Shown piece after piece: positions 4,953-59,780 of a DNA stretch of 64,000 nucleotides (position 1 is the first letter of the stretch; every line of letters starts with the position of its first letter). The stretch lies in contig JAVZJD010000002.1 of NCBI GenBank assembly GCA_038870975.1, positions 576,001 to 640,000 of the forward strand, given 5' to 3'. A program made the translations under genes and the position numbers. Below the pieces are notes generated by a model that was given only the letters and a program-made list of their open reading frames with translations, did no database searches and was not told where the DNA came from. The stretch is from Candidatus Bathyarchaeia archaeon. Its GTDB lineage: Archaea > Thermoproteota > CALKCG01 > B24.

Positions 4953-4962
4953 GTGGTCTAGA

Positions 4963-43124: not shown

Positions 43125-43745
43125 CTAATTAAGCGTTTTCATGTTGAGCTTGAAGTATCCGCACTTCCTGGCTAAGGCTATGATCGCCATGGCTTCCGTG
43201 AATATGGCTAGGCTTATCGTTACTGGCGTTAACCTTATGCCCCAGGGCGTGTAGTTTAAGGCCAAGCCTATGAGCGGTACTACGGCTAAGCTCAAACCTA
43301 TGGATAGTGCAAGCCTCTCAAGGGGCTCTAGGTCTTCGCCTCTGGGGTATAGTGCCTCTATGAGCATGGAGCCTGGTAGGTATAGGACGTATATGGAGCC
43401 TAATACGTACCTAATGTATATTAGGGGGGTATTTCCAATTAGGAAAATTGTGAAGACTGTTGCTAGGACTGTTGTAGATGTCGCCCAGAACCATAGACTT
43501 CTGAGGCTTAGAGCATAGCTTAAGACGTTTTTCGGCGGGTTTGGCTCTGAAAGGCTAAGTGCCTCCTTCTTCCATAAGACGTATAGGGTCTTAGCTGCTT
43601 CCTCAGGCCTTAACTCATGCTCTTTAACGAGCTGGTCTACGAGCTCGGAGACTGTGAGTTTATCTGAGCGCCTAGTGGCCTCCAGAATGAGTTTTTCAAG
43701 GTCAGTTGGGGATTTTTTGCCTCTCCGCTTGGTCATGTGAACCAC
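43125..43745 (-). CDS. DUF1616 domain membrane protein
   Basis: YLPGSMLIEALYP...LERLALSIGLSLAVVPLIGLALNYTPWGIRL. Confidence 0.85.
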   Translation of the reverse strand: MVHMTKRRGKKSPTDLEKLILEATRRSDKLTVSELVDQLVKEHELRPEEAAKTLYVLWKKEALSLSEPNPPKNVLSYALSLRSLWFWATSTTVLATVFTIFLIGNTPLIYIRYVLGSIYVLYLPGSMLIEALYPRGEDLEPLERLALSIGLSLAVVPLIGLALNYTPWGIRLTPVTISLAIFTEAMAIIALARKCGYFKLNMKTLN

Positions 43746-43971: not shown

Positions 43972-44925
43972 GTGTTTGAGATGTGTAGGGTTGGGTTTAC
44001 GGTAATTGCTCTACTCTTATTAACGGCTTTAGCCACGCCTATGGGTTTATGTGCGACTCCCGATGATGCTAGGATGCACGTCGCCGAGGCGTACGAGGCT
44101 GTTTTGGAGGCTTATGAGGCTGGTGGCAACGTCACTCTACTCATAGGTAGGCTTAACGAGGCTTTGAAGTTCATAGCCGAGGCAGAGTCTAGTGGAGACT
44201 TAAGCCCGCTCGATGAGGCAAACAGGCTAATCAAGTCCGTAATCGAAGACGCCCCTAAGGTTAGGGATGAAGGTTTAAAGTCTAGGAACAGCATGTACAT
44301 ATTATATGGTTCTACTTTGACGGTAGCGGTGGCTTTAGCCGTCCTCACATACTTCTACGGTCCCAGGCTCTTCTGGAGGGTCTGGGTTAAGCTTAGAGCC
44401 GACTACAGGGTCAGCCTAGGCTCCAGAGGGGATTCAAAATCGATGATCCTCAGCGGCGAAGTCTGGGCAGTCGTCATGGCTGTCATACTCGTAGGTTCCG
44501 TTTTCGCGTTTTCACAGTTCATTATGGCTGGTAGGGTTACAGAGCCCTTCAGTGAGCTTGGTGTGCTTGGACCTAAGATGAAGATAGGAGACTACCCCAA
44601 GACCGTTGTGGCTGGCGAAGTATTTAGGCTTTACATATACGTTGGAAACCATATGGGTAAGCCAATGTACTACGTGGTATTCATTAAACTCGGAAACGCC
44701 AGTACGCCTGTAGACCCCATGCCTACGGAGCCCTTCATGATGCTTGACTTGATACTTATGCACGGGGAGAATGCGACAATACCAATCGATATAACGTTAA
44801 CCAAACCAGGTGTTAACGAGAGGCTTGTATTCGAACTATGGATATACAATTCCACCGTGAAAACCTTCACTTACCACGGGAGGTGGTGTCAATTGTGGAT
44901 GAACGTAACAGCTCCACCGAGGTGA
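43972..44925 (+). CDS. DUF1616 domain protein (C-terminal part)
   Basis: EPFSELGVLGP..IGDYP, VGNHMG, LVFELW, QLWMNVT. Confidence 0.8.
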   Translation: MFEMCRVGFTVIALLLLTALATPMGLCATPDDARMHVAEAYEAVLEAYEAGGNVTLLIGRLNEALKFIAEAESSGDLSPLDEANRLIKSVIEDAPKVRDEGLKSRNSMYILYGSTLTVAVALAVLTYFYGPRLFWRVWVKLRADYRVSLGSRGDSKSMILSGEVWAVVMAVILVGSVFAFSQFIMAGRVTEPFSELGVLGPKMKIGDYPKTVVAGEVFRLYIYVGNHMGKPMYYVVFIKLGNASTPVDPMPTEPFMMLDLILMHGENATIPIDITLTKPGVNERLVFELWIYNSTVKTFTYHGRWCQLWMNVTAPPR

Positions 44926-44955: not shown

Positions 44956-45867
44956 TTAAATACTTTCAATTAGTTCTTTTAACCCTTCGTTGAGGTTTAC
45001 CCTGGGTTTGAAGTCTATGAGGTTTTCTGCTTTTGAGATGTCGGCGTAGCTGTTCTTTATATCTCCAGCCCTCGGCTTTCGATGTATTGGTTTGCGGTCG
45101 AGTTTTACGATTTTCACCACTAGCTCCGCCAAGTCTTTGATTTTCGTTGGAATGCCGGAGCCTATGTTGAACGTTTCGTTTACCACGTCTCTCTCCATCG
45201 TCTGTTTAATTGCCTCTGATACATCGTTCACATGTATGAAGTCTCTCGTCTGCTCACCGTCGCCATAGATTATCGGCGGGAGACCTTTAACGGCTCTTTC
45301 GATGAATCTGGTTACAACACCTGCGTAGGCTTTACTCTGCCCAAGTCCATAGACGTTGAATAGTCTTAGTATTACGTGTTTTAAACCGTACTTCGAGTAG
45401 AATCTAACGACCTCCTCACCCATTAGCTTGCTCAAACCGTATGGCGACGTTGGATTCGTTGGATGCGTTTCACTTATCGGAAGGCTTACTGGTTCACCGT
45501 AGACCGCCGCACTACTAAGATATATCATGAGTTTGACGCCGCTATCTAAACATGCTTTAGCGACATTAGCAGTCCCCTCCACATTGTTTCTAAAGTATAG
45601 TGCTGGTTTTCTCATCGACTCACATACGCTTACGTAGGCTGCTGCATGTACAACAACGTCTACTCCTCTCAGCGCTTTTCTAAGTGTTATAGCGTTTAAG
45701 ACGTCGCCTTTGACTATGGAGACCCCGCTTGCACGCAACCTGTTTATAGCAGACTCCGTAGACCTCTTCAGGCTGTCAAAGGCAGTGACTTCGAAGCCCC
45801 TACTTTTGAGGAGTATAGCTGTATTATGCCCTATGAAGCCTGCACCGCCTGCAATCAACACCTTCAT
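44956..45867 (-). CDS. UDP-glucose 4-epimerase-like NAD-dependent epimerase
   Basis: GGAGFIG, SSAAVYG, PYGLSK (YxxxK), GDGEQTRDF. Start at ATG 45867 overlapping the upstream stop. Confidence 0.92.
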   Translation of the reverse strand: MKVLIAGGAGFIGHNTAILLKSRGFEVTAFDSLKRSTESAINRLRASGVSIVKGDVLNAITLRKALRGVDVVVHAAAYVSVCESMRKPALYFRNNVEGTANVAKACLDSGVKLMIYLSSAAVYGEPVSLPISETHPTNPTSPYGLSKLMGEEVVRFYSKYGLKHVILRLFNVYGLGQSKAYAGVVTRFIERAVKGLPPIIYGDGEQTRDFIHVNDVSEAIKQTMERDVVNETFNIGSGIPTKIKDLAELVVKIVKLDRKPIHRKPRAGDIKNSYADISKAENLIDFKPRVNLNEGLKELIESI

Positions 45868-46610
45868 AACCGAGCCATGCACCCACACTGCCTCACCGAA
45901 TGCCGCTCCTTACTAATCCCCTTCACTTTGCTCATCAGCTGTTTCTTTATTAGTTGATGCGTCTCCTCTACGGTTTGTTTACTTGTATCTATATAGAGTA
46001 GCTTATTAGACGAAAGTCTTCTTGAAATCGATAGAAGTACGGTGCGTTGCATGTCGAGGTAATCATTTCTCTCGTAAAAGCTCCCCCTGCGCTTCCAGCG
46101 GCATTTTAACACGCTGTTTTCAGCATTTAAGAAGACTATCTGCGTAAAGCCTCCTAGATGCATCAGCTTCAGCGGGAAAGTGATGGCGAAAGACTGTGCT
46201 CCAAGAGTAAACCTAGCAATCTTACTTAAATATATGTAGTCGGAGATCGTGGCTGGGATATACTCTTCAACTAATACTACGTAGCCTAGCTTTAGGGGAA
46301 GGTATATACTGAGCAGGAACTTTATGGCAATACTAAACATGTCCAGCGCTAGCCACAGCTTTAAAAACCTTCTGAAGACATACGGTCTCTCCTCGATCAA
46401 AACCCTTATCGGATATGCATCCTTTCTTTTCCTGGCAAGCATCCTCGCTAATATGACTTCTAGGAAATAGGCGAAGATATGTCCCGTCTTTAGGGAAGAT
46501 GCTCTAACCTTAATCTTCCTACGATTAAGCTCCGAAGCTAGAAGCATCATCTGAGTTGACTTACCTGAACCGACGGTGCCTAGAAAGGCTATTACATGTG
46601 GCCTTGACAT
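45864..46610 (-). CDS. Thymidylate-kinase-like P-loop protein
   Basis: GTVGSGKST; EEY in place of DRY; paralogue of 63341..64000. Confidence 0.7.
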   Translation of the reverse strand: MSRPHVIAFLGTVGSGKSTQMMLLASELNRRKIKVRASSLKTGHIFAYFLEVILARMLARKRKDAYPIRVLIEERPYVFRRFLKLWLALDMFSIAIKFLLSIYLPLKLGYVVLVEEYIPATISDYIYLSKIARFTLGAQSFAITFPLKLMHLGGFTQIVFLNAENSVLKCRWKRRGSFYERNDYLDMQRTVLLSISRRLSSNKLLYIDTSKQTVEETHQLIKKQLMSKVKGISKERHSVRQCGCMARL

Positions 46611-46621
46611 GGTTAAGTCTG

Positions 46622-47647
46622 CTAACCATAAATGGGAAGTTTAGCGAATAACTTTTTCAGGACGAAGCCGAAACCCTTCAGTCTGTCGATATAAGCTTCA
46701 TAAGCAACTAGGACTTGCTGGGCACTTTGTGCGAGCTCAGCTAATTCCCCTTTTTCAAATATGAGGAGGTTATTTCCAGTAGAACATGCAACGAAGTTTT
46801 TTCCCTCTGCAAAAGACATGTTATAGTTGAACCGCCTATCGAATCCTTCCACATATGCCACATACCACGTTTTCAGGTTCCTGGAAACTATCACAGCCTG
46901 GGGTGTGCCAAGGGTCGCCATCCAAATATCGTTATCCAGACGCTTTAGGTCGCACATCTGCGCAAGTCTAACCTCTCTATCATGCCACTTAAGAAAAGTG
47001 AAGTCCCAGCGATTGTTCTCGGGGTTGTAAACGCCTATACCTCCCCTCGCGATTCCAGAATCCATACCGAACACTATCCTATCTTCTAATATTTCTATGG
47101 GTACGAACTGCCATGGGCCTCTATACAGAGGTCTCCAAGTATTACCAGAATCTTCGGAGTGAACAACTCTCGTTACACAACCATCTCCAAGTGTAACGAT
47201 CAGCCAGCTCCTATAGGGGTCGTACTTGATGAAGTGAAAATGTTTAGAGTGCTTATCGAAATCTGCATTTGTAATAAGCCTGTTCCAGTTCTTAAAATCC
47301 TCTGACGCAAATATTCCGGTGGGAGTCTCGCCGTACTCGTGTATAAAAAATCTATCTTGGGCGCAAGCCGCGTGCCAGAAGAAATTTTTAGGATTGACAG
47401 TTTTAAGCACCAACTCGCTTTCATAATCCTCTACTAGGTAAAGACCATCATTTACGGCGATGAGGAATCTGCCTTCCTTACCTCCTAATATAAAGCCCCT
47501 TGAGCCCTCGAACTTTGCCAACTTAGTTGACCTCCCTGAGCCGATGTCAATGAGACTCAAAATTAAAGCCCGGTATTCCCTGAGCAAAGCTATAAGCTTA
47601 TCATCAATAACGCTTACACTCAAAGCGCTTAGGCGAAACTCTTTCAT
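46622..47647 (-). CDS. Asp-box (BNR) beta-propeller-like protein
   Basis: SEDSGNTW, SEDFKNW and SRNLKTW repeats; KHFH motif. Confidence 0.6.
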   Translation of the reverse strand: MKEFRLSALSVSVIDDKLIALLREYRALILSLIDIGSGRSTKLAKFEGSRGFILGGKEGRFLIAVNDGLYLVEDYESELVLKTVNPKNFFWHAACAQDRFFIHEYGETPTGIFASEDFKNWNRLITNADFDKHSKHFHFIKYDPYRSWLIVTLGDGCVTRVVHSEDSGNTWRPLYRGPWQFVPIEILEDRIVFGMDSGIARGGIGVYNPENNRWDFTFLKWHDREVRLAQMCDLKRLDNDIWMATLGTPQAVIVSRNLKTWYVAYVEGFDRRFNYNMSFAEGKNFVACSTGNNLLIFEKGELAELAQSAQQVLVAYEAYIDRLKGFGFVLKKLFAKLPIYG

Positions 47648-47771: not shown

Positions 47772-48566
47772 TCATGTTTTCAATTTATACGAAATAATCC
47801 ATGAAGATAACTCTTTAGTTCTATTAATCAAATGCCTGACAAGATCTTCTTTACATGAAGGGTATGCAACAATTGAGTACGGCTTATTTGCCTCACCAAA
47901 TAGTGGATAGATTTTATAGTTGAAATCTTGCATGAAGGCTCGAACCTCTTCAAATTCTCCATTATAGTGGTTAACATCTATGGAGAAGATAGGGTTGAAC
48001 TCTCTAATACTTTTTTTACATCCTTTCAGGACTTTTAGCTCAGCGCCCTCAACATCTATTTTAATTAAATCTAGTCTAGGAATCTTCATTAGTTTAACTA
48101 ATGTATCCAATTTTACACATGGAACGCTTATCCTCTTCGCGCTCCTCCCTAAAACTATTGAATGCATTGACGGGTGCTCGGAGAGATGTAAAAATTCAAA
48201 ACCATCTTTATCACTCAATGCAAGCCTAAAAAGATGAGCGTTCTTCAATCCATTTAACAAAGCGACTCGACTAAGTATTTTAAAATTGCTTGGCTCAGGC
48301 TCAAAGCTGTAAACAAGACCACGCTGACCAACCATTTTACTTGATAAAGTAGTATACCACCCTCTATACGCCCCTACGTCGACTACGTGGAATCCCTCTT
48401 CTGGAAATAGAGCTGTACCAGAAAGAATTTCCTCACCCCTTTTAGCTAAAGGATTTAACAGGGAGGGTAGCTTCCAAGACTTTAAAAATATGCTTGAGAC
48501 GATGTGTATGTTCATGGCAATTAATAAGCTTAGAAGCTCATTTGGCATAAATTTATCCAAATTCAT
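47772..48566 (-). CDS. FkbM-family methyltransferase
   Basis: VDVGAYRG, SFEPEP, LIKIDVEGAE. Confidence 0.92.
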   Translation of the reverse strand: MNLDKFMPNELLSLLIAMNIHIVSSIFLKSWKLPSLLNPLAKRGEEILSGTALFPEEGFHVVDVGAYRGWYTTLSSKMVGQRGLVYSFEPEPSNFKILSRVALLNGLKNAHLFRLALSDKDGFEFLHLSEHPSMHSIVLGRSAKRISVPCVKLDTLVKLMKIPRLDLIKIDVEGAELKVLKGCKKSIREFNPIFSIDVNHYNGEFEEVRAFMQDFNYKIYPLFGEANKPYSIVAYPSCKEDLVRHLINRTKELSSWIISYKLKT

Positions 48567-48583: not shown

Positions 48584-49738
48584 TTATCGCGCCAACGACT
48601 CTATAATATGTTTCATGGCTAACCCGCATTTTCTTGCAGAGAAGAAGGAGCTGTAGGCTTCTTTGGCTCCCGAGGCAAGTTCTTGAAGTAAGGCGTCATC
48701 TTTGAGCAACCTTCTAACGATGCTAGGATACTCTGGATAGTTATCTGATATGAACACGTGATGTAAATGCTTCAACCTATTGTGTATCAAGCTAGCGGTA
48801 GTATTTGTTAGTATAGGTTTACCGTAGAAAAGCGCTTCAAGCAGTCTATTGCTTACAGACCTAAAGAAAACCGGGGTTACGACCAAGCTTGCATGTCCGT
48901 ATAATGTTTTAAGGATGTCATCAGAAAAGACCCAGCCGACAAAAATGAGATTTTTAGGCATTTGAAAAAAACCGAGCTTTCTCCTCGCTTCTATAGCTTT
49001 GCTACCAGCAATCACCACATTAACCTCTGGGCATTTTTTGGCAATCATGTAAAGTATTCGGAATAAAGGATACTCCTGTAATTTAAATAGGGATTTAGTT
49101 CTACTTATTGTAACAATACTAAAAACATAGCCTTGTTCTTCAATTATTTTCTCTATTTCAGGATTCTCATTTACTCTGCCATTATCATATAGTGCGGCAT
49201 AAGTAGGATAAACAACCTCTAGTTTCTTAAATAAAGGTAGCCTTCTCAAGAAGTTTGTAGTAGAATCGTCTAAAACTACTAAAGCTTGAGAACTCCAAAT
49301 CTGCATTAGGCTATGTAGTATGCTAGGGTAAAAGTTCAATAGCTCCAGATAGTTTTTACCGTAAACAATGTGATCAATAAGCTTATTCGCTCGAATACCC
49401 CATACTCGAAGAATTAAAGGAGTCTTTAACTTTTTAGCAATCTGATGTGCTAAATAGAATGGTGTTGAAGGAGTAGCGATCACCAAGTCAAAATTTCCTC
49501 TGCTTATATTTACTGGAATAAAGTTTTGTGGGCGTATTGCGGCATGAAAAAGAATTGGTGAATCTACTTCTAGATATTTTACTTTGGCTATACCTTCATT
49601 CGTATATACAGTTAAATCTTTTAAAAGTTCATATTTATTGCCAACATGCATGTAAGTTATGTCATAACCTAAGCTCTTCAATGAAGTTGCGCAACCCAAT
49701 TCATGACGAATTTCATTGCTTATTTGAAGGATCTTCAT
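48584..49738 (-). CDS. GT4-like glycosyltransferase
   Basis: FVGWV, NRLLEALFYGKPIL C-terminal GT-B signature. Confidence 0.8.
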   Translation of the reverse strand: MKILQISNEIRHELGCATSLKSLGYDITYMHVGNKYELLKDLTVYTNEGIAKVKYLEVDSPILFHAAIRPQNFIPVNISRGNFDLVIATPSTPFYLAHQIAKKLKTPLILRVWGIRANKLIDHIVYGKNYLELLNFYPSILHSLMQIWSSQALVVLDDSTTNFLRRLPLFKKLEVVYPTYAALYDNGRVNENPEIEKIIEEQGYVFSIVTISRTKSLFKLQEYPLFRILYMIAKKCPEVNVVIAGSKAIEARRKLGFFQMPKNLIFVGWVFSDDILKTLYGHASLVVTPVFFRSVSNRLLEALFYGKPILTNTTASLIHNRLKHLHHVFISDNYPEYPSIVRRLLKDDALLQELASGAKEAYSSFFSARKCGLAMKHIIESLAR

Positions 49739-49755
49739 AAGTTAAGATAGTATTT

Positions 49756-51024
49756 TTATGTGGGCTCCGATTTTTTGAGTTTTTTATCTATTTCTTCGTA
49801 TCCTCGATAGATTTGATAGGCGTTATGTATTATTGTTTCTCCCTCAGCCGACAAAGCGGCTAATAAAAGGGCAGCTCCAGCTCTTATATCCAGCGCCTCC
49901 ACTTCGCTACTAATAAGCTTCTCCACCCCATCGATAACCGCTGTATTATTAATAACTTCGATTTTAGCCCCCATTTTCTTCAATCCTCCTATGTGACTAA
50001 ATCTTTCTGAGAAAATCGAGTCTCTCACAAAGCTTCTGCCCTCTGCTAAGCATAGAACAGCTGATGTCTGTGGTTGAAAATCTGTAGGAAAGCCTGGGTA
50101 CACTCCAGTGGTAATCTCTATTGCTCTAGGCCTCTTAGACATTTTGACATGAACAGACCCTCCCTTAACTCTAATTTCAACACCCATGGCACGCAACTTT
50201 TCGATGAACGCACTTAAGTAATTTGGACAGGTCTCTTCAATTAAGACATCTCCTTTTGTGACCGCAGCTACGAGCATAAAGGTTCCAGTTTCTATTCTAT
50301 CTGGCATTATTGAATACTCTACACCATTTAATTCGTTAACTCCCTCTATTTTGACGGTGTTCGTACCAGCACCTTTTATTCTAGCACCCATGCTATTCAA
50401 GAAGTTTGCTAAATCAATTATCTCTGGTTCTTTAGCTACGTTCTGGATTATAGTAGTGCCCTTAGCTAGGGAGGCAGTGACCATAATATGTTCAGTTGCA
50501 CTCACACTAGGAAACTCAAGAGTCATTACATTACCTCGCAACTGTTTGGCTTCAGCCTCAATTATCTCATCTTCAATATTGATAATAATTTTAGCACCTA
50601 GCCTCTCAAGCCCTAATATATGAGAAACAATTTTACGCGTACCTATTTTACAGCCACCTGGAAGTGACATTTTTGCGTAACCGAACTTCAGTAGTAAAGG
50701 CCCTAACAAATTAATTGAGTATCTCACTGATTGAGTTAATGGTGTTAATAGTTCTGGTTTTTTTAGAATAGGAGTTAAATGAAGGACATTAACTTTAAAG
50801 GTTACTTTGCTACCTATATACTCTAGAAGTTCACACATCTTGTACACATCGAGAATCGCAGGTATGTTTTTCAATACAACATCACTATCAACTATTAAAG
50901 ATGCAGTTATAAGTGGTAAAGCAGAGTTCTTAGCACCACTTATCTTTACCTCCCCTTCTAATCTATATCCTCCTTCTATCACCAACTTTTTAGTTTCCAA
51001 ATTTATCATCTCTATGTAGTCCAT
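49756..51024 (-). CDS. murA: UDP-N-acetylglucosamine 1-carboxyvinyltransferase (MurA)
   Basis: SGAKNS (Lys22-equivalent), LPGGCKIGTR (Cys115/Arg120), PSVSATE, AKEPEI, PDRIETGT, YPGFPTD (Asp305), DIRAG, RGYE. One extra A in the A6 run near the 3' end gives ...KLKKIGAHIKILS* ending at 49742. Confidence 0.95.
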   Translation of the reverse strand: MDYIEMINLETKKLVIEGGYRLEGEVKISGAKNSALPLITASLIVDSDVVLKNIPAILDVYKMCELLEYIGSKVTFKVNVLHLTPILKKPELLTPLTQSVRYSINLLGPLLLKFGYAKMSLPGGCKIGTRKIVSHILGLERLGAKIIINIEDEIIEAEAKQLRGNVMTLEFPSVSATEHIMVTASLAKGTTIIQNVAKEPEIIDLANFLNSMGARIKGAGTNTVKIEGVNELNGVEYSIMPDRIETGTFMLVAAVTKGDVLIEETCPNYLSAFIEKLRAMGVEIRVKGGSVHVKMSKRPRAIEITTGVYPGFPTDFQPQTSAVLCLAEGRSFVRDSIFSERFSHIGGLKKMGAKIEVINNTAVIDGVEKLISSEVEALDIRAGAALLLAALSAEGETIIHNAYQIYRGYEEIDKKLKKSEPT

Positions 51025-51030
51025 TCTAGT

Positions 51031-52326
51031 TTAAACTACACTAAGGATGGGAAAAAGCCTTGCAAACTTAACATAGATATCTAAGAGTTTTCGGGATGAT
51101 TTTTTTGACATTATGTGATTTAGCGGATAGAAAAGTATGGCGCGAAGGTAGTCAAGCTGCGTTGGATCTGGCAGCTCATGATTAATACAAGGTATTCTTC
51201 TATAAAATAAATTAAGGATCGATGTGCGAGCCTTAGCACGACGTTTTGCGATGTATGTACGCTGAGATTGCAATATTTTATCAGCACTTATTTTCTCCAA
51301 CTTTATAACACCCTCCCTGAGAGCTTCGCGGAGGATTCTTTCCCCTCTTTTACTCCTAGCGATAACAAATGACGCGCCAAGTTTATCATACATTAGCTCA
51401 GGCAGCCAAGCATCGCCAAATGAAAGGTCAGCTAACTCACATAACTTATCAGCACATATCGAACAACGTTTAGTGAAAAAGAATTGACCGAATATTAATC
51501 CCCAGTAATATGGTGAATTAAAAGGGATAAAAACCTTAGTACCATTTTTAAGGAGTACCGATAGACCACCCGGCCACCCCTCACTACGGTAATGTATTCT
51601 CCTAACATCCTCCTTTTTTACATTTAATTTCTGAAGCAGAAATTCTGTTGCAGAAAAGGTCGGAGCATGACCACAAAACAGTCCAAGGTGTAGGATTATT
51701 CGCTCCCTCAAAACTTTATTAACAACCTCGGCTTTTCTAACCCCTTGGATATGACATGGCAACCCAACGATAGCAAATCTTTCATTACTTCTTGATTTCA
51801 AGACCTCTTTTAACACTACATTAACAGGTACAGGACAATACTTCGATTTAGAAGCCTCTATCACATCCTCCTTCGTTCTTGCTATAAAAGGCTCTGCTTC
51901 TAAAGGATCGTGATCACTCATCCTTGTTACAATAGCACCGTCTATAATTCCTTTATCTAAGATGAATGTTAATATTTGGGTTACCATGCCTCCTGACGAA
52001 GAATTGTACCTTATGTGATTATCTGTGGAGTATCCAATATACGAAACGATATAATTTCCTAGTAGTTTATTATCAGGTTCTTTTCCAAATATCTCCAAAT
52101 TCAAATCCTTGAAATCCACAGAATAGCTAGGGCAAACACGAAGGCATAATGTGCATCTGTTACACCTTTCACTGCATAGCCGTGGAATATAAGCTTCTTG
52201 TGTTTTAATGAGTTTTATTGCGGAGTTTGGACAAATTCCAACACAAGTTCCGCATCCGATACAAAACCCGGCACTTCGTACTATAGATATATTATTCTTA
52301 GTCGATGTATTTCTATTTTGAATCAA
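51031..52326 (-). CDS. FrhB/FdhB-family (F420 hydrogenase beta-like) Fe-S flavoprotein with N-terminal 2x[4Fe-4S]
   Basis: CIGCGTCVGICP, CNRCTLCLRVCP, SSSGGMVT, SKY, VGLPCHI, GLFCG, CSICAD, DLSFGDAW. Confidence 0.92.
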   Translation of the reverse strand: MIQNRNTSTKNNISIVRSAGFCIGCGTCVGICPNSAIKLIKTQEAYIPRLCSERCNRCTLCLRVCPSYSVDFKDLNLEIFGKEPDNKLLGNYIVSYIGYSTDNHIRYNSSSGGMVTQILTFILDKGIIDGAIVTRMSDHDPLEAEPFIARTKEDVIEASKSKYCPVPVNVVLKEVLKSRSNERFAIVGLPCHIQGVRKAEVVNKVLRERIILHLGLFCGHAPTFSATEFLLQKLNVKKEDVRRIHYRSEGWPGGLSVLLKNGTKVFIPFNSPYYWGLIFGQFFFTKRCSICADKLCELADLSFGDAWLPELMYDKLGASFVIARSKRGERILREALREGVIKLEKISADKILQSQRTYIAKRRAKARTSILNLFYRRIPCINHELPDPTQLDYLRAILFYPLNHIMSKKSSRKLLDIYVKFARLFPILSVV

Positions 52327-52347
52327 ATTCGAGCCCTCTTAATCATC

Positions 52348-53540
52348 TTAAGCTTCACAATTTCGAACACTGCGGGCTCTTATCGCATACTCGTAAATGA
52401 TTCTTTCCCATCTCATGGTTTCCTCCCACGTATACCGTTTTACGACTCCCTCAGGAGGTCGGGAAAGTTTTAGGCGCTCAGTTAAGGGGAGGGAGAGAAT
52501 CTTTAAAATTGCTTCGGCAAACGCTTTAGCATCTCCCATCTTCTTGACCAGAAGTGGTGCATCCTCACCATAAATCTCACGGAGAGGTGGCGAGTAATTA
52601 TATGCGACTATAGGTATTCCTACCGATATTGCCTCATCAACCGTGAGAGGGAGCGCTTGATGCTTGGGAATTACGAGGAGATTGGCTGAAGCCATCATTT
52701 TTATCTTCTCCACCTCACTTACAGGGCCCTTTACCAATACATTTCTCTCAAGTCTCTCTTTCGATTTTTAATTTAATCTCATGCTTCATATGGTTAGGTA
52801 TTTCTCCGCATGTCACTAATTTCGCATCAGGTTTTCTTGAAACCACATGCTTCCATATATCGAGGAGATATGAGATCCCTTTTCTCTCATCGTGTGTACC
52901 GACGAATACAGCGTCAAATTCCTTCTCTATTTGAATGTCTATGCAACGATCAATAAGCCCGTTAGGATTAAAGAAATAGTATCCCTTCTTTGACTTCGAT
53001 GTCTTGATAAAAACATCACGTGAATACTTAGTCACAAAGATTAGGAAGTCTCTTAAAAGAATCCGGAGAAAAACCATCGACAATACAGCACGTATACCGG
53101 CGCCCAATGCACTATTGTTTTTAAATTCAATAGAAAGGCCCTTAATACCATTTGTAGCGCCCCAAAATTAACGGGAGAAGAAGATGTATTGTAATTACAT
53201 AAGGGCTTTTGATGAGCAACAATATAATGTAAACTGTAGCAATAGAGAGCTACCTATATCAGGCGTATGTAATAAGTCTACTTTACGTATGCTTCGTGAT
53301 GTAACCCTACTCATACGTATAGATATTTTAAAACGAAGTCGAACACCATTCCTAGTAAAAGTAGAAAAGACGAGGGGTATCCTTAGCGTTCAACCATAAT
53401 CCTAGACTCATGGGGGATAATGGGGTTAAAATTTTATAATCATGCGCCAAAAAAAAAACCAGATGCTTCTTCATATATTACAGTTGGGTCATATAAGTGT
53501 CTTGAATATGCTGATCCAAACGGAACCAGCAAGACCATAG
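52348..53540 (-). pseudogene. Multiply frameshifted GT4 glycosyltransferase, paralogue of 54698..55975
   Basis: Fragments FVGTHDERKG...KPDAKLVTCG and PYVITIHL match the neighbour's FIGVHDERKG...KPNAKLVTCG and PCVVTIQL; frame breaks at ~52755 and several more upstream; 5' limit approximate. Confidence 0.8.
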
Positions 53541-53575
53541 ACGCATGAAAATTGTGAGTGCCGAAGTTACAGACT

Positions 53576-54694
53576 TTACCCTCTAAAATCTATGATCTCC
53601 TTGAACGGTATTCCAAGAAATCTTAAACCAATAACTCTAGTGTAGTGATAATCATCTATAATGATGGGTATGAGAGTTCCCTTCATCACGTAACCCAAGA
53701 GAGTAAAGTGGAAACTCGATCCCATGAAAGTCCCTGCTCTAACCTTTATTAATAGTTCTTCATAAGTTTGAGCTTTTATAATTTCTACATGTTCCATATC
53801 AAAGCCCTTATTTTTTATGAAATCTAAGAATTCATATGAATATTCCTCCTCTTGAAAAGCTATTATGATAATCTGAATGAACTTTGGTTTCAACTGAATA
53901 ATTTTATTCCATATTACTTTATAGTATTTTTCCTTCAGTTCCTTTTTCAGGGGAGGACGTATATGAATAGCTAGAACATCATCTGAAGCTGTTGCAATAT
54001 ACTGGTACCAGCAATGAAGTAATCTAAGTAATCCCCAATCTTTAGCTAAACGAACCCTTAAATGTTTGGGAGAGACATCTTTTACTACTATTAGACTCAT
54101 AGGCTCTCTTACATACGCCAAATCCATTTGCTTAAATAGTAGTCTTAGCCCCAATTTAAACTTCCTACTTATTACAGGACCTATAGAAGATGGCCCTAAC
54201 ACTACTTTAATCCTTTGAAGTTTGGCGGATATAGAAAGTACTAATAGTGGAATAAGAGTGCTTTTCCACCATGCCTCATTTAGATATCCACCTCCAGAAA
54301 ATACCAACATATCAGCCTTGCGAATTGCTATTGCCAAATTTATTAAAGGATTTTTTGATCTAACTAATATGGGTAAAGGCAATGCTGATATGCCAAGAAA
54401 ACCTATAAGGTTTAAGAGAAATTCTATGTTCCTCAACAATTTTCTTTTAAAGTGCTTAGGTCGACAGGAGTCTATGATATCTGGAAGAACTGAGACCTCA
54501 CATTTACTATGGAAACAGCCTAAGTTTTTCTTCAATTCCGGATATATGTACTTTTTAAAGTTTTCGTAGTCTGGTGCAATTATTGTTAGGCGACCAATCT
54601 TTGAGAAGAATTCTAGCGCAAACATATCTATTGCTTTATCGCCTATATTTATATACTCTGCATCTAGGCGCAAGATTATGTTATGTCTTGTCAT
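53576..54694 (-). CDS. Polysaccharide pyruvyl transferase family protein (WcaK/CsaB-like)
   Basis: NIGDKAI, FSGGGYL, PSSIGP, VREPMS, SSFH motifs. Confidence 0.85.
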   Translation of the reverse strand: MTRHNIILRLDAEYINIGDKAIDMFALEFFSKIGRLTIIAPDYENFKKYIYPELKKNLGCFHSKCEVSVLPDIIDSCRPKHFKRKLLRNIEFLLNLIGFLGISALPLPILVRSKNPLINLAIAIRKADMLVFSGGGYLNEAWWKSTLIPLLVLSISAKLQRIKVVLGPSSIGPVISRKFKLGLRLLFKQMDLAYVREPMSLIVVKDVSPKHLRVRLAKDWGLLRLLHCWYQYIATASDDVLAIHIRPPLKKELKEKYYKVIWNKIIQLKPKFIQIIIIAFQEEEYSYEFLDFIKNKGFDMEHVEIIKAQTYEELLIKVRAGTFMGSSFHFTLLGYVMKGTLIPIIIDDYHYTRVIGLRFLGIPFKEIIDFRG

Positions 54695-54697
54695 GAT

Positions 54698-55975
54698 TCA
54701 GCGCCTACAGCTTTTTAGGAAATCCTTTATGACCATAATATAAATGCTTCTCTCTTTTCTCAATACAGCGTTCCAAGTCAAGTTTTTAATATGCAACTGA
54801 GCGATCCTAGATAGAGCCTTAAGCATATCAGTATTCTCTAGTAATTCTATCACTTTTTTAGCAAACACCTCAGTATTAGCTTGAGGAATAGAAATTACTG
54901 CCTTAGATTTTTTAAAAAAAGAATCTTTAAATTCAGGAATATCATAGACTACAACAGGTAATCCCATAGCTAAAGCTTCTATAACCACTATGGGGAAAGC
55001 TTCATGTCTACTTGGAAGCACAAAGATTCTTGAACGGGCAAGAAGCTGAATCTTCTCATCCTCGCTTACAGAACCCATTAATAAAATGTTCTCGTGTAAG
55101 CTATAGTCTCTTATCCTGTCGAGTATTTTATCTTTCATGTGTTTTGGAATTACTCCACATGTTACTAATTTTGCATTAGGCTTAACTTGAATAACATGCT
55201 TCCACACCTTCATCAACTCTAAAATCCCTTTTCGTTCATCATGCACACCGATAAAAATACCATCATATATCTTTGTTCCTTCATATTTCTTCATAATCAT
55301 ATTTGAAACACCATTATAATTCACAAATGTAAGCTTCTTTGTCTTTACCAAGCTAAGAAATTTAGCTTTAGTCCATTCACTAACAGTTATCAGATAACAT
55401 CTTTTTAGAATACTTAGAAAGATAGAAGTGGTTAAAGTATTGAAAAGCGCTTTCAACAGCCTATACTTGCTCCTGAAATGCATGTAGAGCGACTTCATAT
55501 CAGAGCTCCCTGACTCTAACAACCATTTTGGAATCAGTTGTATCGTAACCACGCAAGGTCTACGCAAAATTACACTTACTAAATAGCCGTATAACACCCA
55601 AGAAGATAGTGCATCAGGTACAAGGATGATGTCTGGATAATGTTTACCATAGCGAATTTCAAGAGTTTTTTTTAAAAATTTAAAGGCGTTCACGATGAGA
55701 AGAAATATTCTTTCCTCGTTATATCCCCTACCATAGCCTTTAACTGAATATGCTTGATAGTGCGGCAGGCTATAACCAAGTGTTCTTTGCACGTAATCTC
55801 TTAACTGAGCCATAGGAGTGAATTCTATTGTTGCGTAGTCTATTCCGACCATCTTCCCCCTCATCAAAAGCTCAAAGATCCTTCTATAATTTCCAGCAAA
55901 AAAATCTGGCATAAAGTGAGGTAAGATCATTAAAACATTAATATCCTTTTTCGATCTATTAGCATTCCCATTCAT
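54698..55975 (-). CDS. GT4 glycosyltransferase
   Basis: RKG, LPSRHEAFPIVVIEALAMGLPVV. Confidence 0.92.
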   Translation of the reverse strand: MNGNANRSKKDINVLMILPHFMPDFFAGNYRRIFELLMRGKMVGIDYATIEFTPMAQLRDYVQRTLGYSLPHYQAYSVKGYGRGYNEERIFLLIVNAFKFLKKTLEIRYGKHYPDIILVPDALSSWVLYGYLVSVILRRPCVVTIQLIPKWLLESGSSDMKSLYMHFRSKYRLLKALFNTLTTSIFLSILKRCYLITVSEWTKAKFLSLVKTKKLTFVNYNGVSNMIMKKYEGTKIYDGIFIGVHDERKGILELMKVWKHVIQVKPNAKLVTCGVIPKHMKDKILDRIRDYSLHENILLMGSVSEDEKIQLLARSRIFVLPSRHEAFPIVVIEALAMGLPVVVYDIPEFKDSFFKKSKAVISIPQANTEVFAKKVIELLENTDMLKALSRIAQLHIKNLTWNAVLRKERSIYIMVIKDFLKSCRR

Positions 55976-55979
55976 TGAC

Positions 55980-56909
55980 TTACACTTTATGTTCTTTGCT
56001 GGTTATTGCTTCTCCGCGTATATAGGCATCACCTTCACAATAATACCGCCTCGTAAGGAATCCCTCTTTTTTTAAAAAGTTTTCTACCTCGTCAGCTTCA
56101 GTTGATGTATGGTAAGATGCTATAACAAATCTACGGCACTTGTCAAGAGATTTTCCGAAGCCCCTTAGAACATGAAGTTCAGCGCCTTCAACATCTATCT
56201 TAACTAGGTCGAACTATTCTATTCCCGAGATTTTTGCTAAATTATCAAAGGTTATTGCTTTTACCGTTAAGTACTTTCTCATCTTCTTTCTCTTTACAAT
56301 GCTCGGCGCCATTGAATACCCTGTTGTCTCTGAACTAACGTAAAGCCTAAATATGCCTTCATGGGAGAATAATGCCAGCTTTAATGGTATGACATTTTTA
56401 AGCCGATTAAGGCGAATGTTCATATTAAGAACTTTATAGTTGCTAGTGCAAGGTTCAATGGCTAATACTTGAGATGCTCGCCTTGCACAATGTAATGTGA
56501 AAGCGCCAATATGTGCTCCAACATCAACTGTTATGAAATTAGGCTTAATTGAATAATAATGATCGTAACTTTTTGCCTCGAATACATCATGTATAGCGAA
56601 ATAGTCGGTTATTCTAAAAAGTAAAGGGCCATCTTCTGACAAGTATAAGCCTAAAATTTTGTTCCCAACTTTTCTGTAGGCTTCCTCATTTAGTATATGC
56701 TTGAGTAACTTTCCCGTTACCATGAAGGGGAGGAAAAGAGCGAAACTAACAAATTTCACTCCACGGTAATATGTTACTAGAATCTGCTTTATGTCACACA
56801 TTAGCCTTCGTATTCTTGGTACTGCAACAAAAATGTTTATATCAAAGAACATACTAACAGCCAGAAATACTTTATGGATTGAAATAGATTCTGTATGTCT
56901 GAGCATCAA
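55980..56909 (-). pseudogene. FkbM methyltransferase interrupted by one in-frame TAG at 56214-56216
   Basis: VDVGAHIG, IEP; the same frame continues past the TAG as FDLVKIDVEGAELHVLRG...EHKV* to 55980. Confidence 0.88.
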
Positions 56910-58659
56910 AAACTCTATCGTAGTCGTAACATACTTTCTCTTTTATCGCTACTCTTCTTTCAGCAATAGCTTTCAGTCCCTGGGCCCATATATCGCCTGT
57001 AGAAGCTCCCACTTTCAGCTCGACAAATTCCAAGATGTAACTATGAGGCTTACCATAATGGTCTTCAAGCCGTCCGATATTCCCTAATTTTTCTAGCGGC
57101 AAAATCATTGTTAATAGCTCGGCCAGATCTGAAAGGATAACGCCTTCACCAAACGGATGAATACTAATAAACGCTTTTAAATGTATGTAGCTGGGGCTAG
57201 GGAAGTCTGCCTCATTATATGAAATACTTGGATCGTAGAATTGTCGTGGAAAATATGACTCCCACGGGGATAGAAAAGACACGAAAACTATGAAAATAGT
57301 TACAGCTACCGCTACCCATTTCAAAAGCCTTCGTTTAGACTCCAATGATAATGAGAAAAATAAGCAAAAAGAATAGGCTATTATTGGGAATAATAAAACT
57401 CGAAAGATGAAAACGTGGGACCAAGTGAGCAAACGCAACATCATATACGGAGAAAATGAAAAAATAAAAAGTAGCGGATATAGCTCACCTCTAGAAAGCC
57501 TTTTTCTCACAAGCTTATAAAGCATAAAGACGCTAACAGCCGGTAACGATAGGTCCAGCAAAAAAGCCCTTATACGAGGCAAATAAATCCACGGCACTGG
57601 CACAACAGCCTCCGGCATCACAGATACAGTCGAAAAAATGCTTTCAACTTTAGAACCATACTCGGGATAAATAAGATTTCTCAAAATAGTATTAAAAATG
57701 ACTGGAATTCCTTTCGTAACGGGCGAGGTAATAAACACCATAAAGTTGTACATAAAGAATGCAATGAAATGGAGAGTGGACAGCCTTAGCAGGGAGTTTA
57801 ACTTTACCCGTTCGATAAACATTTGTTTATGCATCAAGTATGCCACTAAAGTGAACGTAAACATGATTATGCTGCATTCTGCAGGTATTGAACTATGTAA
57901 AAGTGAAAGAAATAAGATTAAAAAGATAATCATGCAAACAAGTTTTACGGACGAATTAGTAGTGAGGTACTTATACAAAAAGTATAAAATAAGGTAGAAA
58001 AAGGCCAGTGCCAAGATTCTATGATAAAAGCAGATTCCAACATAAACCATGGCTGGTGCTGTGGCAAAAATAAGCATAGCCGCTGGAGCAACGAGATTTT
58101 TCATTTTTACATTGGGCATTAAATTCTCGACGAATAATACCACGCAAAGAAGCATAAAGATATTGACGAAAAATGGCAGGATGCAGCTTGCCTTTAAAGG
58201 GTCAACTCCTAAAATCAATGTGAAAAAAGCCGCCAAAGTTGAGAAAATTGGATAGTAAGCAGAGTTGCCTGGGCCAATCGTCAATTCTCTGTAAGTATTA
58301 CTAATGCTTATTTGTCCACTATCTAATATGGACCTTAAATTCGTAAATTCCATGTATGGGTCTCTGAATGGAAGTACGTTATACCTAGAGCCTAATACAT
58401 ATATGCTCCGCAAGATAAGCATTAAAGCTATTATGAAAAAGTAGGTTACAAACTTCCATCGTTCATCAAACATGACGGAAATGACCGAAGTAATACTCAA
58501 CAATAATGATGCAGTTATATAAAGCCATAGTGGCAGAGATTTGGTCGCCAATGCCCATGCTATAATGCAAAACGCAGTGACAAATACCAAAAAGCAAAAG
58601 GCAAGACAGGGAAATCCGAACGATCTCACACGTAGCAAAGTGATAGGGCTTCCTCCCAA
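56872..58659 (-). CDS. Polytopic membrane protein (DUF2206-like), putative GT-C transferase/polymerase
   Basis: About 13 TMs, PFRDPY and YYP loop motifs, C-terminal DRVFD; glycan-locus context. Confidence 0.62.
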   Translation of the reverse strand: MGGSPITLLRVRSFGFPCLAFCFLVFVTAFCIIAWALATKSLPLWLYITASLLLSITSVISVMFDERWKFVTYFFIIALMLILRSIYVLGSRYNVLPFRDPYMEFTNLRSILDSGQISISNTYRELTIGPGNSAYYPIFSTLAAFFTLILGVDPLKASCILPFFVNIFMLLCVVLFVENLMPNVKMKNLVAPAAMLIFATAPAMVYVGICFYHRILALAFFYLILYFLYKYLTTNSSVKLVCMIIFLILFLSLLHSSIPAECSIIMFTFTLVAYLMHKQMFIERVKLNSLLRLSTLHFIAFFMYNFMVFITSPVTKGIPVIFNTILRNLIYPEYGSKVESIFSTVSVMPEAVVPVPWIYLPRIRAFLLDLSLPAVSVFMLYKLVRKRLSRGELYPLLFIFSFSPYMMLRLLTWSHVFIFRVLLFPIIAYSFCLFFSLSLESKRRLLKWVAVAVTIFIVFVSFLSPWESYFPRQFYDPSISYNEADFPSPSYIHLKAFISIHPFGEGVILSDLAELLTMILPLEKLGNIGRLEDHYGKPHSYILEFVELKVGASTGDIWAQGLKAIAERRVAIKEKVCYDYDRVFDAQTYRIYFNP

Positions 58660-59780
58660 ACCTCATGCAGGCGTTTAAAGCCTTTGCTATATGCAAAATC
58701 TTCTTGAATAGTTTTTCTGGCGTTCTCCCCCATTATACTCCGCAGTCTATCGTCTCTAAGAAGAATATCCATTGCCTTATAGAGGCTTTCCACATTTTTC
58801 TCAGACACCACTAAACCATTGAACCCGTGCCTTACCAGTCCATCCTTCACAGACCCAACAGCATTCGTAACTATCACAGGCTTGCCAACGGACATGGCTT
58901 CACATACAGCTAGAGGCCATTCTTCAGGAATTTCTAAAGTAATGGATGGGTAAACAAAAATATCGCAAATCAAAAACAAAGCATTCTTATCCTCAGGCTC
59001 TACAAACCCGTAAAAGAGTACATTGGATATTCCAAGATCTCTACATAATTTTTCCAGATTGGCCCGCTCAGGGCCGTCTCCACATATCAGCAGAAAAACG
59101 TCTTTATGCTCGTTATGAATCCTTTTAAAGGCCCTGATCAAAAATTCAACTCCCTTCTTCTTTATTAGCCTTCCGAAAAAGAGGACTATGGCCTTACTCT
59201 CTAATCCCAGGCACCTACGTATTTCCTCAGTCCTCAAAATATCTTTTCTGCCAATATCAAGTTTAGGTACATAATCTGGAGGAAAACCTATCCTCATTTT
59301 CTCAACAGGGATTCCGACTTCTCTCCAAAAAATACTGGCTCCCCTTGTCAGATAGAGTAACGTGCTATGTTGGGCCACTAATCTGCTCAGCGGAAAATGA
59401 AGTTTTGCGAAGAAGGTACTCGGCCAGTACCAATGATTATCACCGACAACTACAGGTCTCCCCAAAGCCTTCGCAAAAATAAACGCCAGAAAAGCCCACC
59501 ACCCCATCAAGCCGCAAGAAACCATATGAAACCCCCTTCGAGCCAGCCGATGTATAATCCATGGGGAGTAAACGAACTCCCACAAGAAGATGGATTTTAG
59601 GCTCATCATCCCAAAAGTACCTAAAGAGTATCGGTAAATTATATATTCGCCATTTTTAACAAAAGAAGCATAAGCTTTACGGAATGAATTAGGCAACTTG
59701 TACCTCAAAGAATCTGCGAATAAAGTAGGGCCGCGAATCTGCATTATTATTTTTTTATCCATATTCATGACCCCTATCAT
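58626..59780 (-). CDS. GT4 glycosyltransferase
   Basis: FFGRLIKKKG, GDGPE, EEWPLAVCEAMSVGKPVI. Confidence 0.92.
   Translation of the reverse strand: MIGVMNMDKKIIMQIRGPTLFADSLRYKLPNSFRKAYASFVKNGEYIIYRYSLGTFGMMSLKSIFLWEFVYSPWIIHRLARRGFHMVSCGLMGWWAFLAFIFAKALGRPVVVGDNHWYWPSTFFAKLHFPLSRLVAQHSTLLYLTRGASIFWREVGIPVEKMRIGFPPDYVPKLDIGRKDILRTEEIRRCLGLESKAIVLFFGRLIKKKGVEFLIRAFKRIHNEHKDVFLLICGDGPERANLEKLCRDLGISNVLFYGFVEPEDKNALFLICDIFVYPSITLEIPEEWPLAVCEAMSVGKPVIVTNAVGSVKDGLVRHGFNGLVVSEKNVESLYKAMDILLRDDRLRSIMGENARKTIQEDFAYSKGFKRLHEVWEEALSLCYV

Follow-up and report, generated by a model that had tools for sequence, protein, structure and literature searches.

A murA gene paired with a gene for an FrhB-like flavoprotein in an archaeal surface-glycan locus: a putative substitute for MurB

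Results

Gene composition of the locus

The window, i.e., the whole stretch of DNA analysed, comprises 64,000 nt of the genome of a hot-spring Candidatus Bathyarchaeia archaeon (1.85 Mb, two contigs, 92.9% complete). Coordinates below refer to the window, and L, P and G numbers are our labels for the sequences compared. The following features belong to the locus.

44956..45888, minus strand: NAD-dependent sugar-nucleotide epimerase/dehydratase at the edge of the locus (PF01370, 205 bits)
46622..47647, minus strand: conserved protein of 341 aa, no Pfam or NCBIfam match
47772..48566, minus strand: FkbM-family methyltransferase (PF05050, TIGR01444)
48584..49738, minus strand: GT4 glycosyltransferase directly downstream of MurA, 384 aa (Pfam)
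49756..51024, minus strand: MurA, UDP-N-acetylglucosamine 1-carboxyvinyltransferase, 422 aa, intact (TIGR01072, PDB alignment, conserved columns)
51031..52326, minus strand: FrhB-family Fe-S flavoprotein, 431 aa, TTG start (PF04422, PF04432, Fer4); proposed enolpyruvyl-ether reductase
52348..53167, minus strand: GT4 pseudogene (stop-to-stop ORFs; two frames, joining near 52750; degradation of the first ~166 codons, up to about 53575)
53576..54694, minus strand: polysaccharide pyruvyltransferase-family protein, 372 aa (PF04230, 48 bits, cut-off 25.3)
54698..55975, minus strand: GT4 glycosyltransferase, 425 aa (Pfam), a paralogue of the decayed GT4
56214..56909, minus strand: second FkbM-type methyltransferase (TIGR01444)
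56872..58659, minus strand: membrane protein of 595 aa, no known family (about 12 hydrophobic segments in a hydropathy scan)
58626..59780, minus strand: GT4 glycosyltransferase (NCBIfam GT4 models)

Judged by its sequence, the MurA is a genuine bacterial-type member of the family. It matches TIGR01072 (murA) over its full length with 497 bits (equivalog cut-off 392.7) and NF006873 with 506 bits, while the AroA model gives just 74 bits; in the PDB alignment it is about 50% identical to the solved MurA of Clostridioides difficile (6q03). An earlier sequence-only reading of this DNA reported a full-length MurA with equivalents of Lys22, Cys115, Arg120 and Asp305, and these are indeed present as K32, C125, R130 and D315; N23, R91, R331 and R397 of the E. 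coli enzyme likewise correspond to N33, R101, R341 and R381. Of the columns whose conservation is 90% or more across a set of 39 bacterial MurAs, all but four are retained; the exceptions, N179H, L380I and the last two of the columns listed, are conservative or C-terminal. Among 401 genomes sampled from the phylum, MurA is present in two.

The stop codon of the FrhB-like gene is separated from the ATG of murA by 6 nt on the same (-) strand, exactly as first read. In the FrhB-like protein a 2x[4Fe-4S] ferredoxin domain at the N-terminus precedes FrhB_FdhB_N and FrhB_FdhB_C, and the protein belongs to the FrhB/FdhB family (88 and 119 bits against PF04422 and PF04432, both above the cut-off). All 12 cluster cysteines are kept, eight in the ferredoxin domain and four, the invariant C191, C218, C288 and C291, in the core; the SGG flavin motif is also retained. 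The AF2 model (pLDDT 90.4) has its best fold matches in 8riu_B, Fsr, FrhB and HCAR (Foldseek E about 1e-19 to 1e-20 against FrhB). The protein is not an frhB equivalog, as it scores 115 bits against TIGR03289 with a cut-off of 331.5, and its gene is flanked by GT4, MurA and pyruvyltransferase genes rather than by those for the partners FrhA and FrhG. Pfam detects neither FAD_binding_4 nor MurB_C in it, and there is no MurB chain among its fold matches. It may be MurB-like in function, though it stands outside the MurB family.

The pyruvyltransferase was described earlier as lying 1.2 kb upstream on the same strand among GT4 and methyltransferase genes. This description is correct: 1,249 nt separate its end from the FrhB start, and the gap is filled by the GT4 pseudogene. 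The protein falls short of the CsaB equivalog TIGR03609 (51.5 against 213), is encoded by a single copy in the whole genome, and has relatives in L071 (62% identity) and L072 (34%). The GT4 pseudogene is 45-55% identical to the intact GT4 immediately preceding FrhB in L004 and L005. We considered an intron splitting this GT4 and rejected it: a simple frameshift lies between the two C-terminal pieces, and several frames are broken in the N-terminal third. Since the adjoining GT4 is a pseudogene, the locus has been remodelled.

The remaining genes are partly shared with other loci. The GT4 directly downstream of MurA is conserved beside the module in L004, L005, L071 and L072 (tblastn identities 46-71%), and the 341-aa protein is syntenic in L004, L005 and L071 (39-59%). 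The GT4 at 54698..55975 is 73% identical to that of L071 and 34% identical to the FrhB-proximal GT4 of L004 and L005. The 595-aa membrane protein, with a 37% identical counterpart in L004, is a candidate glycan polymerase or flippase. In L071 a 414-aa protein with no family match occupies the place of FrhB and MurA. The G+C content of the locus is 0.35-0.41, compared with about 0.39-0.48 for most other parts of the window. A scan for bacterial-type promoters and terminators gave nothing above chance; these are bacterial signals, not applicable to archaea.

Peptidoglycan genes and origin of the segment

The window was earlier read as containing no murB, Mur ligase, mraY or PBP gene, and this can be extended to the whole genome. 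No MurB_C, MurC-F or penicillin-binding-protein transpeptidase was found there; the sole Mur-ligase-family gene is FolC, and there is no true MraY, the only match having 49.9 bits against a cut-off of 192, with similar sub-threshold matches in archaeal control genomes. Because the genome is 92.9% complete, the absence of peptidoglycan genes is probable rather than proven. The segment is most probably archaeal and not bacterial: the window contains the archaeal-type families PaREP1 and DUF1616 as well as a housekeeping tRNA synthetase, and the genome shows no peptidoglycan gene set. The genes on the flanks show synteny with a contig that bears the label 'Sulfolobales archaeon'.

Recurrence of the MurA-FrhB pair

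Six MurA-FrhB loci were found, namely, the window, L004, L005, L061, L058 and L059, with L004 and L005 being near-duplicates from a single assembly. FrhB adjoins MurA in L004, L005, L058 and L059, and the two genes are 3.2 kb apart in L061. In the Asgard genomes G767 and G730 the order is GT4-MurA-FrhB-Wzx, reversed relative to the window; neither genome contains MurB_C, and neither MurA-FrhB locus contains a pyruvyltransferase. In the flanks of 109 ordinary bacterial MurA loci no FrhB-like gene was found (0/29 from species genomes and 0/80 metagenomic ones, the latter serving as a negative control only, as the scan with the MurA-clade alignment had chosen generic MurA motifs). We found no paper on the MurA-FrhB pair in the literature.

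In the maximum likelihood tree the MurA of the window clusters with those of L004, L005 and L061, every one of them linked to FrhB (support 95/91). The sister clade consists of P0124, P0123 and P0127 (joint support 100/99), and in all three a canonical MurB (FAD_binding_4 and MurB_C) directly follows MurA, in loci that also hold GT4 or GT2, DUF2206 and Phosphodiest genes. Thus, the same slot after MurA is taken by MurB in the sister clade and by the FrhB-like gene in the clade of the window. The Asgard MurAs of such pairs fall in a different part of the tree, and the AU test rejects a single clade of the six FrhB-linked MurAs, a group defined after the tree was seen (p = 0.007). On this phylogeny we presume that the pairing in Asgard genomes arose independently of that in the window.

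Several other MurA sequences were set aside. The 'Pacearchaeota' MurA (L034) is considered bacterial because its contig also carries MreB, DNA polymerase III delta' and RRF. The Promethearchaeota MurA (G401, L060) was not counted as an instance of the module; it groups with Saccharibacteria and has neither FrhB nor a glycan context. Of the G059 MurA just 147 residues are present, at the end of a contig.

The pyruvyltransferase as an alternative partner

It had been expected that MurA, FrhB and the pyruvyltransferase would recur together; this did not prove to be the case, and all three are found together in the window only. The other five MurA-FrhB loci have no pyruvyltransferase in the stretches read, and L072, L062 and L006, where readable, combine a pyruvyltransferase with a window-type FrhB without MurA. 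The order in L072 is GT4-PvT-FrhB-GT4, with the pyruvyltransferase overlapping FrhB; this FrhB is the closest to that of the window among those with readable neighbours (62% identity). A single FrhB clade (support 100) includes both the MurA-linked proteins of the window, L004 and L005 and the pyruvyltransferase-linked one of L072, and is nested among further pyruvyltransferase-linked FrhBs. Both alternative partners move a three-carbon unit from PEP. Since the pyruvyltransferase is missing from other MurA-FrhB loci and pairs with FrhB where MurA is missing, the window seems to combine two alternative PEP-transferase/reductase modules in a mosaic, rather than to encode a pathway that depends on three genes.

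Discussion

We believe, with a probability of about 0.6 and on sequence comparison, that the locus contains a horizontally acquired two-enzyme module, MurA plus an FrhB-like substitute for MurB, within an archaeal surface-glycan locus. The core of the original proposal, the replacement of MurB by FrhB, is favoured by the MurB found in the same slot of the sister clade and by the Asgard MurA-FrhB pairs in genomes without MurB; the three-gene form of the proposal finds no support.

In the suggested pathway, MurA, as its sequence indicates, would move the enolpyruvyl group of PEP onto the 3-OH of UDP-GlcNAc. Electrons would then pass through the two ferredoxin-type clusters and the core [4Fe-4S] cluster to the flavin of the FrhB-like protein, which would turn the enolpyruvyl group into a 1-carboxyethyl (lactyl) ether by reducing its double bond. 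The expected product is UDP-MurNAc or its stereoisomer, i.e., the reaction of MurB would be performed by an unrelated fold. Finally, a GT4 enzyme could put the sugar into a lipid-linked or S-layer glycan, and not into peptidoglycan. The reductase may serve both PEP transferases of the window. A ferredoxin-type electron donor fits better than F420H2. As CofD is encoded in the genome, the archaeon probably produces F420. Gene neighbourhood by itself cannot set the substrate, the stereochemistry or the electron donor.

Because MurB holds the place of FrhB in the closest relatives, this archaeon probably makes a muramic-acid-like sugar for its surface glycan with an unrelated reductase. Because the FrhB clade also partners pyruvyltransferase-family enzymes, we favour the view that the FrhB-like protein reduces enolpyruvyl ethers in general. 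A broader statement can be made tentatively, and we give it somewhat less than an even chance: some archaea (Bathyarchaeia and Asgard) would make MurNAc or its lactyl stereoisomer for their surface glycans through a non-homologous Fe-S flavoprotein replacing MurB, and the FrhB-like family of glycan loci, reducing enolpyruvyl ethers in general and joined with MurA in some cases and with a pyruvyltransferase-type enzyme in others, would provide a widespread, hitherto unassigned bacterial and archaeal route to lactyl-ether sugars.

The FrhB of the window could instead work with the upstream pyruvyltransferase only, as a pair producing a lactyl ether or a modified ketal on the assembled glycan; MurA would then be a separate passenger whose enolpyruvyl-UDP-GlcNAc is used unreduced or is reduced by another enzyme. 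The overlapping pyruvyltransferase of L072, the similar pairs in L062 and L006, and the intact pyruvyltransferase in the window all speak for such a pair. We nonetheless consider it unlikely, considering that FrhB is 6 nt from MurA, and the pyruvyltransferase is 1.2 kb off across a pseudogene; that FrhB accompanies MurA in five further loci showing no pyruvyltransferase where read; and that the genome yielded no alternative candidate for reducing the MurA product. It is also conceivable that the FrhB-like protein has nothing to do with the enolpyruvyl group and instead transfers electrons, linked to F420 or ferredoxin, for example to another glycan-modifying step, and that its adjacency to MurA reflects shared regulation only. 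Every relative of solved structure is part of a larger complex, in which it serves as an electron-transfer or F420-reducing subunit (PMC11493965), and the presence of CofD agrees with such a role. However, no conserved partner catalytic subunit lies next to the FrhB-like gene, its recurrent neighbours are solely two unrelated PEP-dependent transferases, and the sister clade has MurB in its slot. The PF04432 control search, moreover, also matches in Bacteroides thetaiotaomicron, an organism that is not known to contain F420. Taken together, these points make a purely electron-transferring role quite improbable.

It is very doubtful that the module is what is left of a horizontally transferred glycan cassette, now decaying and without function, or bacterial DNA misplaced by assembly or binning. 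Such an origin is suggested by the adjoining GT4 pseudogene, by the G+C content below that of most of the remaining window, and by the scarcity of the genes: MurA is as rare in the phylum as stated above, and the glycan-type FrhB is found in 0 of 16 other genomes of the same order. Against it, both ORFs are intact and keep all catalytic and cluster residues despite 55-65% identity to relatives; the assembly has two contigs, and the database entry for these genes gives a contig of 792 kb; PaREP1, DUF1616 and a tRNA synthetase occur in the window, and the flanking synteny is archaeal in label.

Muramic acid is widely taken as a strictly bacterial marker, e.g., when bacterial residues in soil are estimated; this use would be weakened if archaea could make it as well. 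The proposal, if true, would also mean that archaeal surface glycans contain a sugar not expected there, and would present a clean case of non-homologous replacement for a textbook antibiotic-target reaction. It would suggest a testable function for the large unannotated 'coenzyme F420 hydrogenase beta-like' family common in capsule, O-antigen and EPS loci, and two soluble proteins would be enough for a direct test of how lactyl-ether sugars are made enzymatically.

Comparison with known systems

As in the bacterial MurA/MurB pair, the MurA of the window is a full family member with the catalytic Cys, Lys, Arg and Asp, and the gene for a flavin reductase adjoins it. The differences are that this reductase is an FrhB-fold Fe-S flavoprotein and not of the FAD_binding_4/MurB_C fold, that its donor is probably of ferredoxin type rather than NADPH, and that the context is an archaeal GT4/Wzx-type glycan locus without MurC-F, MraY or PBP.

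Among FrhB-family modules we compared FrhB of the F420-reducing hydrogenase, the N-terminal half of Fsr, the F420-reducing CODH/Fwd subunits (8RIU, 8RJA) and plant HCAR. The protein of the window shares with them the domain order, in which the 2x[4Fe-4S] ferredoxin domain precedes an FrhB core containing a flavin and a single [4Fe-4S] cluster, and its predicted fold agrees with theirs (TM 0.7-0.8, normalised by target length); HCAR, with the same type of fold, is a small-molecule reductase. Unlike these modules, it stands alone in glycan loci with no hydrogenase, sulfite-reductase or CODH partner; a YRxxGWPG insert specific to its family and a helical extension at the C-terminus also set it apart.

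Enterobacterial capsule and O-antigen loci with pyruvyltransferase-flavoreductase pairs likewise combine a PEP-dependent transferase with a flavin reductase, and the FrhB clade of the window also pairs with PF04230 proteins. The Klebsiella K37 capsule carries a lactyl ether rather than a ketal. K22 and K37 have a pyruvyltransferase (wclZ) and a nitroreductase, and K66 has a pyruvyltransferase (wcqF) and a 'coenzyme F420 hydrogenase'; all three capsules are listed as non-pyruvylated (PMC4616057 and its supplement). According to a reference title in PMC3857182, K22 contains 4-O-[(S)-1-carboxyethyl]-GlcA. The transferase paired with FrhB in the window is, in contrast, MurA, which has the EPSP-synthase fold and acts on a nucleotide sugar, and not a GT-B-like pyruvyltransferase.

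The C-terminal domain of FbiB, which reduces dehydro-F420-0 in F420 biosynthesis (PMC6450877), differs in its nitroreductase-like fold and in its substrate, a deazaflavin phosphodiester and not a sugar ether. The likeness lies in the chemistry: here, too, a flavoenzyme that is no relative of MurB reduces a PEP-derived enolpyruvyl group to a lactyl one.

Results

The earlier proposal that a MurA and an FrhB-type gene stand together in an archaeal glycan locus is confirmed. The genes of this region lie on the minus strand throughout:

49756-51024, minus strand: MurA, 422 aa, passing the murA equivalog model
51031-52326, minus strand: FrhB-family gene, 431 aa
52348-53575, minus strand: GT4 pseudogene, frameshifted near 52750, its N-terminal third broken in several frames
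53576-54694: pyruvyltransferase, separated from the FrhB-like gene by a 1.2-kb gap

The MurA scores 497 bits on the curated murA equivalog model (cut-off 392.7), shares ~50% identity with Firmicute MurAs of known structure, and has the equivalents of Lys22, Asn23, Arg91, Cys115, Arg120, Asp305, Arg331 and Arg397. It retains all columns conserved at at least 90% in 39 bacterial MurAs except four, which are conservative or C-terminal (N179H, L380I and the last two listed columns). On these grounds the window is predicted to encode a competent MurA. The database copy (P0121) has 417 aa and is shorter than the ORF.

The FrhB-like gene stops 6 nt short of the MurA ATG. Only one in-frame start, a TTG with GAGGG before it, takes in the conserved ferredoxin domain; because the real start is this TTG, the database copy (P0001; 355 aa, 76 residues shorter) loses the 2x[4Fe-4S] domain entirely. 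Two CxxCxxCxxxC motifs are present, along with four further invariant cysteines in the core (C191, C218, C288, C291), an SGG motif and the YRxxGWPG segment specific to the family; the protein is judged from its sequence to be a cofactor-complete FrhB-type flavoprotein. Its AlphaFold model (pLDDT 90.4) matches FrhB-type modules and has no MurB chain among its structural matches; it resembles the F420-reducing subunits of ethanotroph CODH and Fwd (8RIU, 8RJA; PMC11493965), as well as the Fsr N-terminal half, FrhB itself and plant HCAR.

A careful ML tree of 47 MurAs places the window MurA with those of the near-duplicate contigs L004 and L005 (support 100/98) and then with that of L061 (95/91). 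FrhB lies directly upstream of MurA in L004 and L005; in L061 it is on the same strand, 3.2 kb upstream. The sister clade of these FrhB-linked MurAs (P0124, P0123 and P0127; joint support 100/99) has a canonical MurB (FAD_binding_4 plus MurB_C) within ~50 nt after MurA in all three members:

L067 3532-5755: MurA-MurB pair
L069 3713-5802: MurA-MurB pair
L070 193-2446: MurA-MurB pair

Thus, close MurA relatives carry either MurB or FrhB alongside; judged by gene content, this alternation is the classic signature of an enzyme replaced by an unrelated one. In L067 and L069, whose flanks can be read, the pair lies outside dcw clusters, in a glycan-type locus that has DUF2206 and GT4 or GT2 (L067 also has Phosphodiest); L070, only 2.7 kb long, contains little else than the pair. 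Among 14 control genomes DUF2206 was matched in Methanosarcina only, therefore the MurA-MurB contigs may be archaeal despite one "Thermotogota" label. If so, they would be a case of UDP-MurNAc made by the canonical route for a glycan other than peptidoglycan.

In the FrhB tree, the proteins of the window, L004, L005 and L072 form one clade with P0002 and P0004 (support 100), nested among FrhBs with a PF04230 pyruvyltransferase next to them (those of L062 and of L006, the latter belonging to a Methanoperedenaceae genome). Of the FrhBs whose neighbours could be read, that of L072 is the closest (62% identity); it stands in the order GT4-pyruvyltransferase-FrhB-GT4, with no room for MurA; L004 and L005 have GT4-FrhB-MurA-GT4, the downstream GT4 being of the same family. 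Therefore, one reductase clade occurs beside two unrelated transferases, which have in common that they use PEP and give a three-carbon product, carboxyvinyl or pyruvyl. This partner swap points to an enolpyruvyl group as the probable substrate of the reductase.

MurA occurs in 3 of 400 Asgard genomes. Two of them (G767, G730) have GT4-MurA-FrhB-Wzx, the order opposite to that of the window, and no MurB_C in the genome. Their FrhB is only 34% identical, and their MurAs occupy a separate region of the MurA tree; a single clade for all six FrhB-linked MurAs, a group named after tree inspection, was rejected by the AU test (p = 0.007). Two genes upstream of MurA, both loci encode a ~1,300-aa protein (L058 4337-8263, L059 9245-13153) that has no match in Pfam. 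In the control set of 80 metagenomic and 29 species-genome MurA loci, no FrhB-like gene was found in the flanks; MurB was present in three of the metagenomic ones.

The suggested three-gene module of MurA, FrhB and pyruvyltransferase is not supported: there is no pyruvyltransferase in the stretches read of L004, L005 and L061 or in G767 and G730. The 1.2-kb gap is not intergenic DNA, since the GT4 pseudogene fills it. The pseudogene has an intact orthologue (45-55% identity), the GT4 directly preceding FrhB in two related contigs, and its 34%-identical paralogue is the intact window GT4 (54698-55975). In L005 the orthologue of the latter is split (4746-5641). The opposite copy being broken, the paralogues have undergone reciprocal decay in two lineages.

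Contig L071, labelled "Sulfolobales archaeon", keeps the window flanking genes (59-73% identity). A 414-aa gene (10103-11347; no family match) stands there in place of the pseudogene, FrhB and MurA, beside a frameshifted pyruvyltransferase. Thus, the module behaves as an exchangeable cassette. Other genes around it in the window are:

43125-43745, minus strand, and 43972-44925, plus strand: ORFs that match DUF1616, the first its N-terminal and the second its C-terminal half
45864-46610 and 63341-64000, both minus strand: P-loop proteins with weak thymidylate-kinase-like matches, flanking the glycan locus
46622-47647, minus strand: soluble 341-aa protein without a family match
56872-58659, minus strand: 595-aa protein with ~12 hydrophobic segments, without a family match

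The DUF1616 pair, at the locus edge, may represent one archaeal membrane-protein gene that was rearranged or split. The 595-aa protein is a candidate polymerase or flippase and the 341-aa protein a candidate glycan-modifying enzyme of unknown type; the synteny of both with the module is kept in L004, L005 or L071. The P-loop protein at 45864-46610 is conserved in L004 and L071.

The window contains the archaeal-type families PaREP1 and DUF1616 and a class-I (leucyl-type) tRNA synthetase. A search of the host genome (1.85 Mb in only two contigs, 92.9% complete) for murB and Mur ligases found no MurB_C, and the single Mur-ligase-fold gene is FolC, beside purN. The same genome has no transpeptidase, only a sub-threshold, archaeal-type MraY match, and AroA encoded elsewhere. 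Two of 401 sampled genomes of the phylum have MurA (the second copy is a fragment), and none of five from the genus does; glycan-type FrhB is absent from 16 other genomes of the order. Together with a G+C of the glycan locus below most of the remaining window, this rarity implies that the module was acquired horizontally.

Discussion

We believe that replacement of MurB by the FrhB-like protein, as the sequence-only reading proposed, is the best-supported explanation, with a probability of roughly 0.6; it is favoured by the MurB in the sister-clade slot, the Asgard recurrence and the partner swap. Electron input of the ferredoxin type rather than from F420H2 is argued for by the conserved ferredoxin domain and by the occurrence of family members in Bacteroides (control search), which is not known to have F420. 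The host genome also encodes CofD and a second, unrelated FrhB paralogue, and either donor could be within its means.

In a 2021 survey, archaea yielded no more than a handful of MurA-like sequences, to which no role was assigned (PMC10117817). No paper was found that connects FrhB-like proteins with MurA or with lactyl ethers. Among Klebsiella types, K22 and K37 combine a pyruvyltransferase with a nitroreductase and K66 with a "coenzyme F420 hydrogenase"; they are among four types that have pyruvyltransferase genes and capsules listed as non-pyruvylated (PMC4616057 and its supplement). K22 contains 4-O-[(S)-1-carboxyethyl]-GlcA, according to a reference title (PMC3857182), and lactyl groups occur on E. 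coli O58, O69, O124, O146 and O150 (PMC7685785). In the proposed mechanism, C3 of the enolpyruvyl ether would receive a hydride from the flavin of the FrhB-like protein, just as it does from the FAD in MurB.
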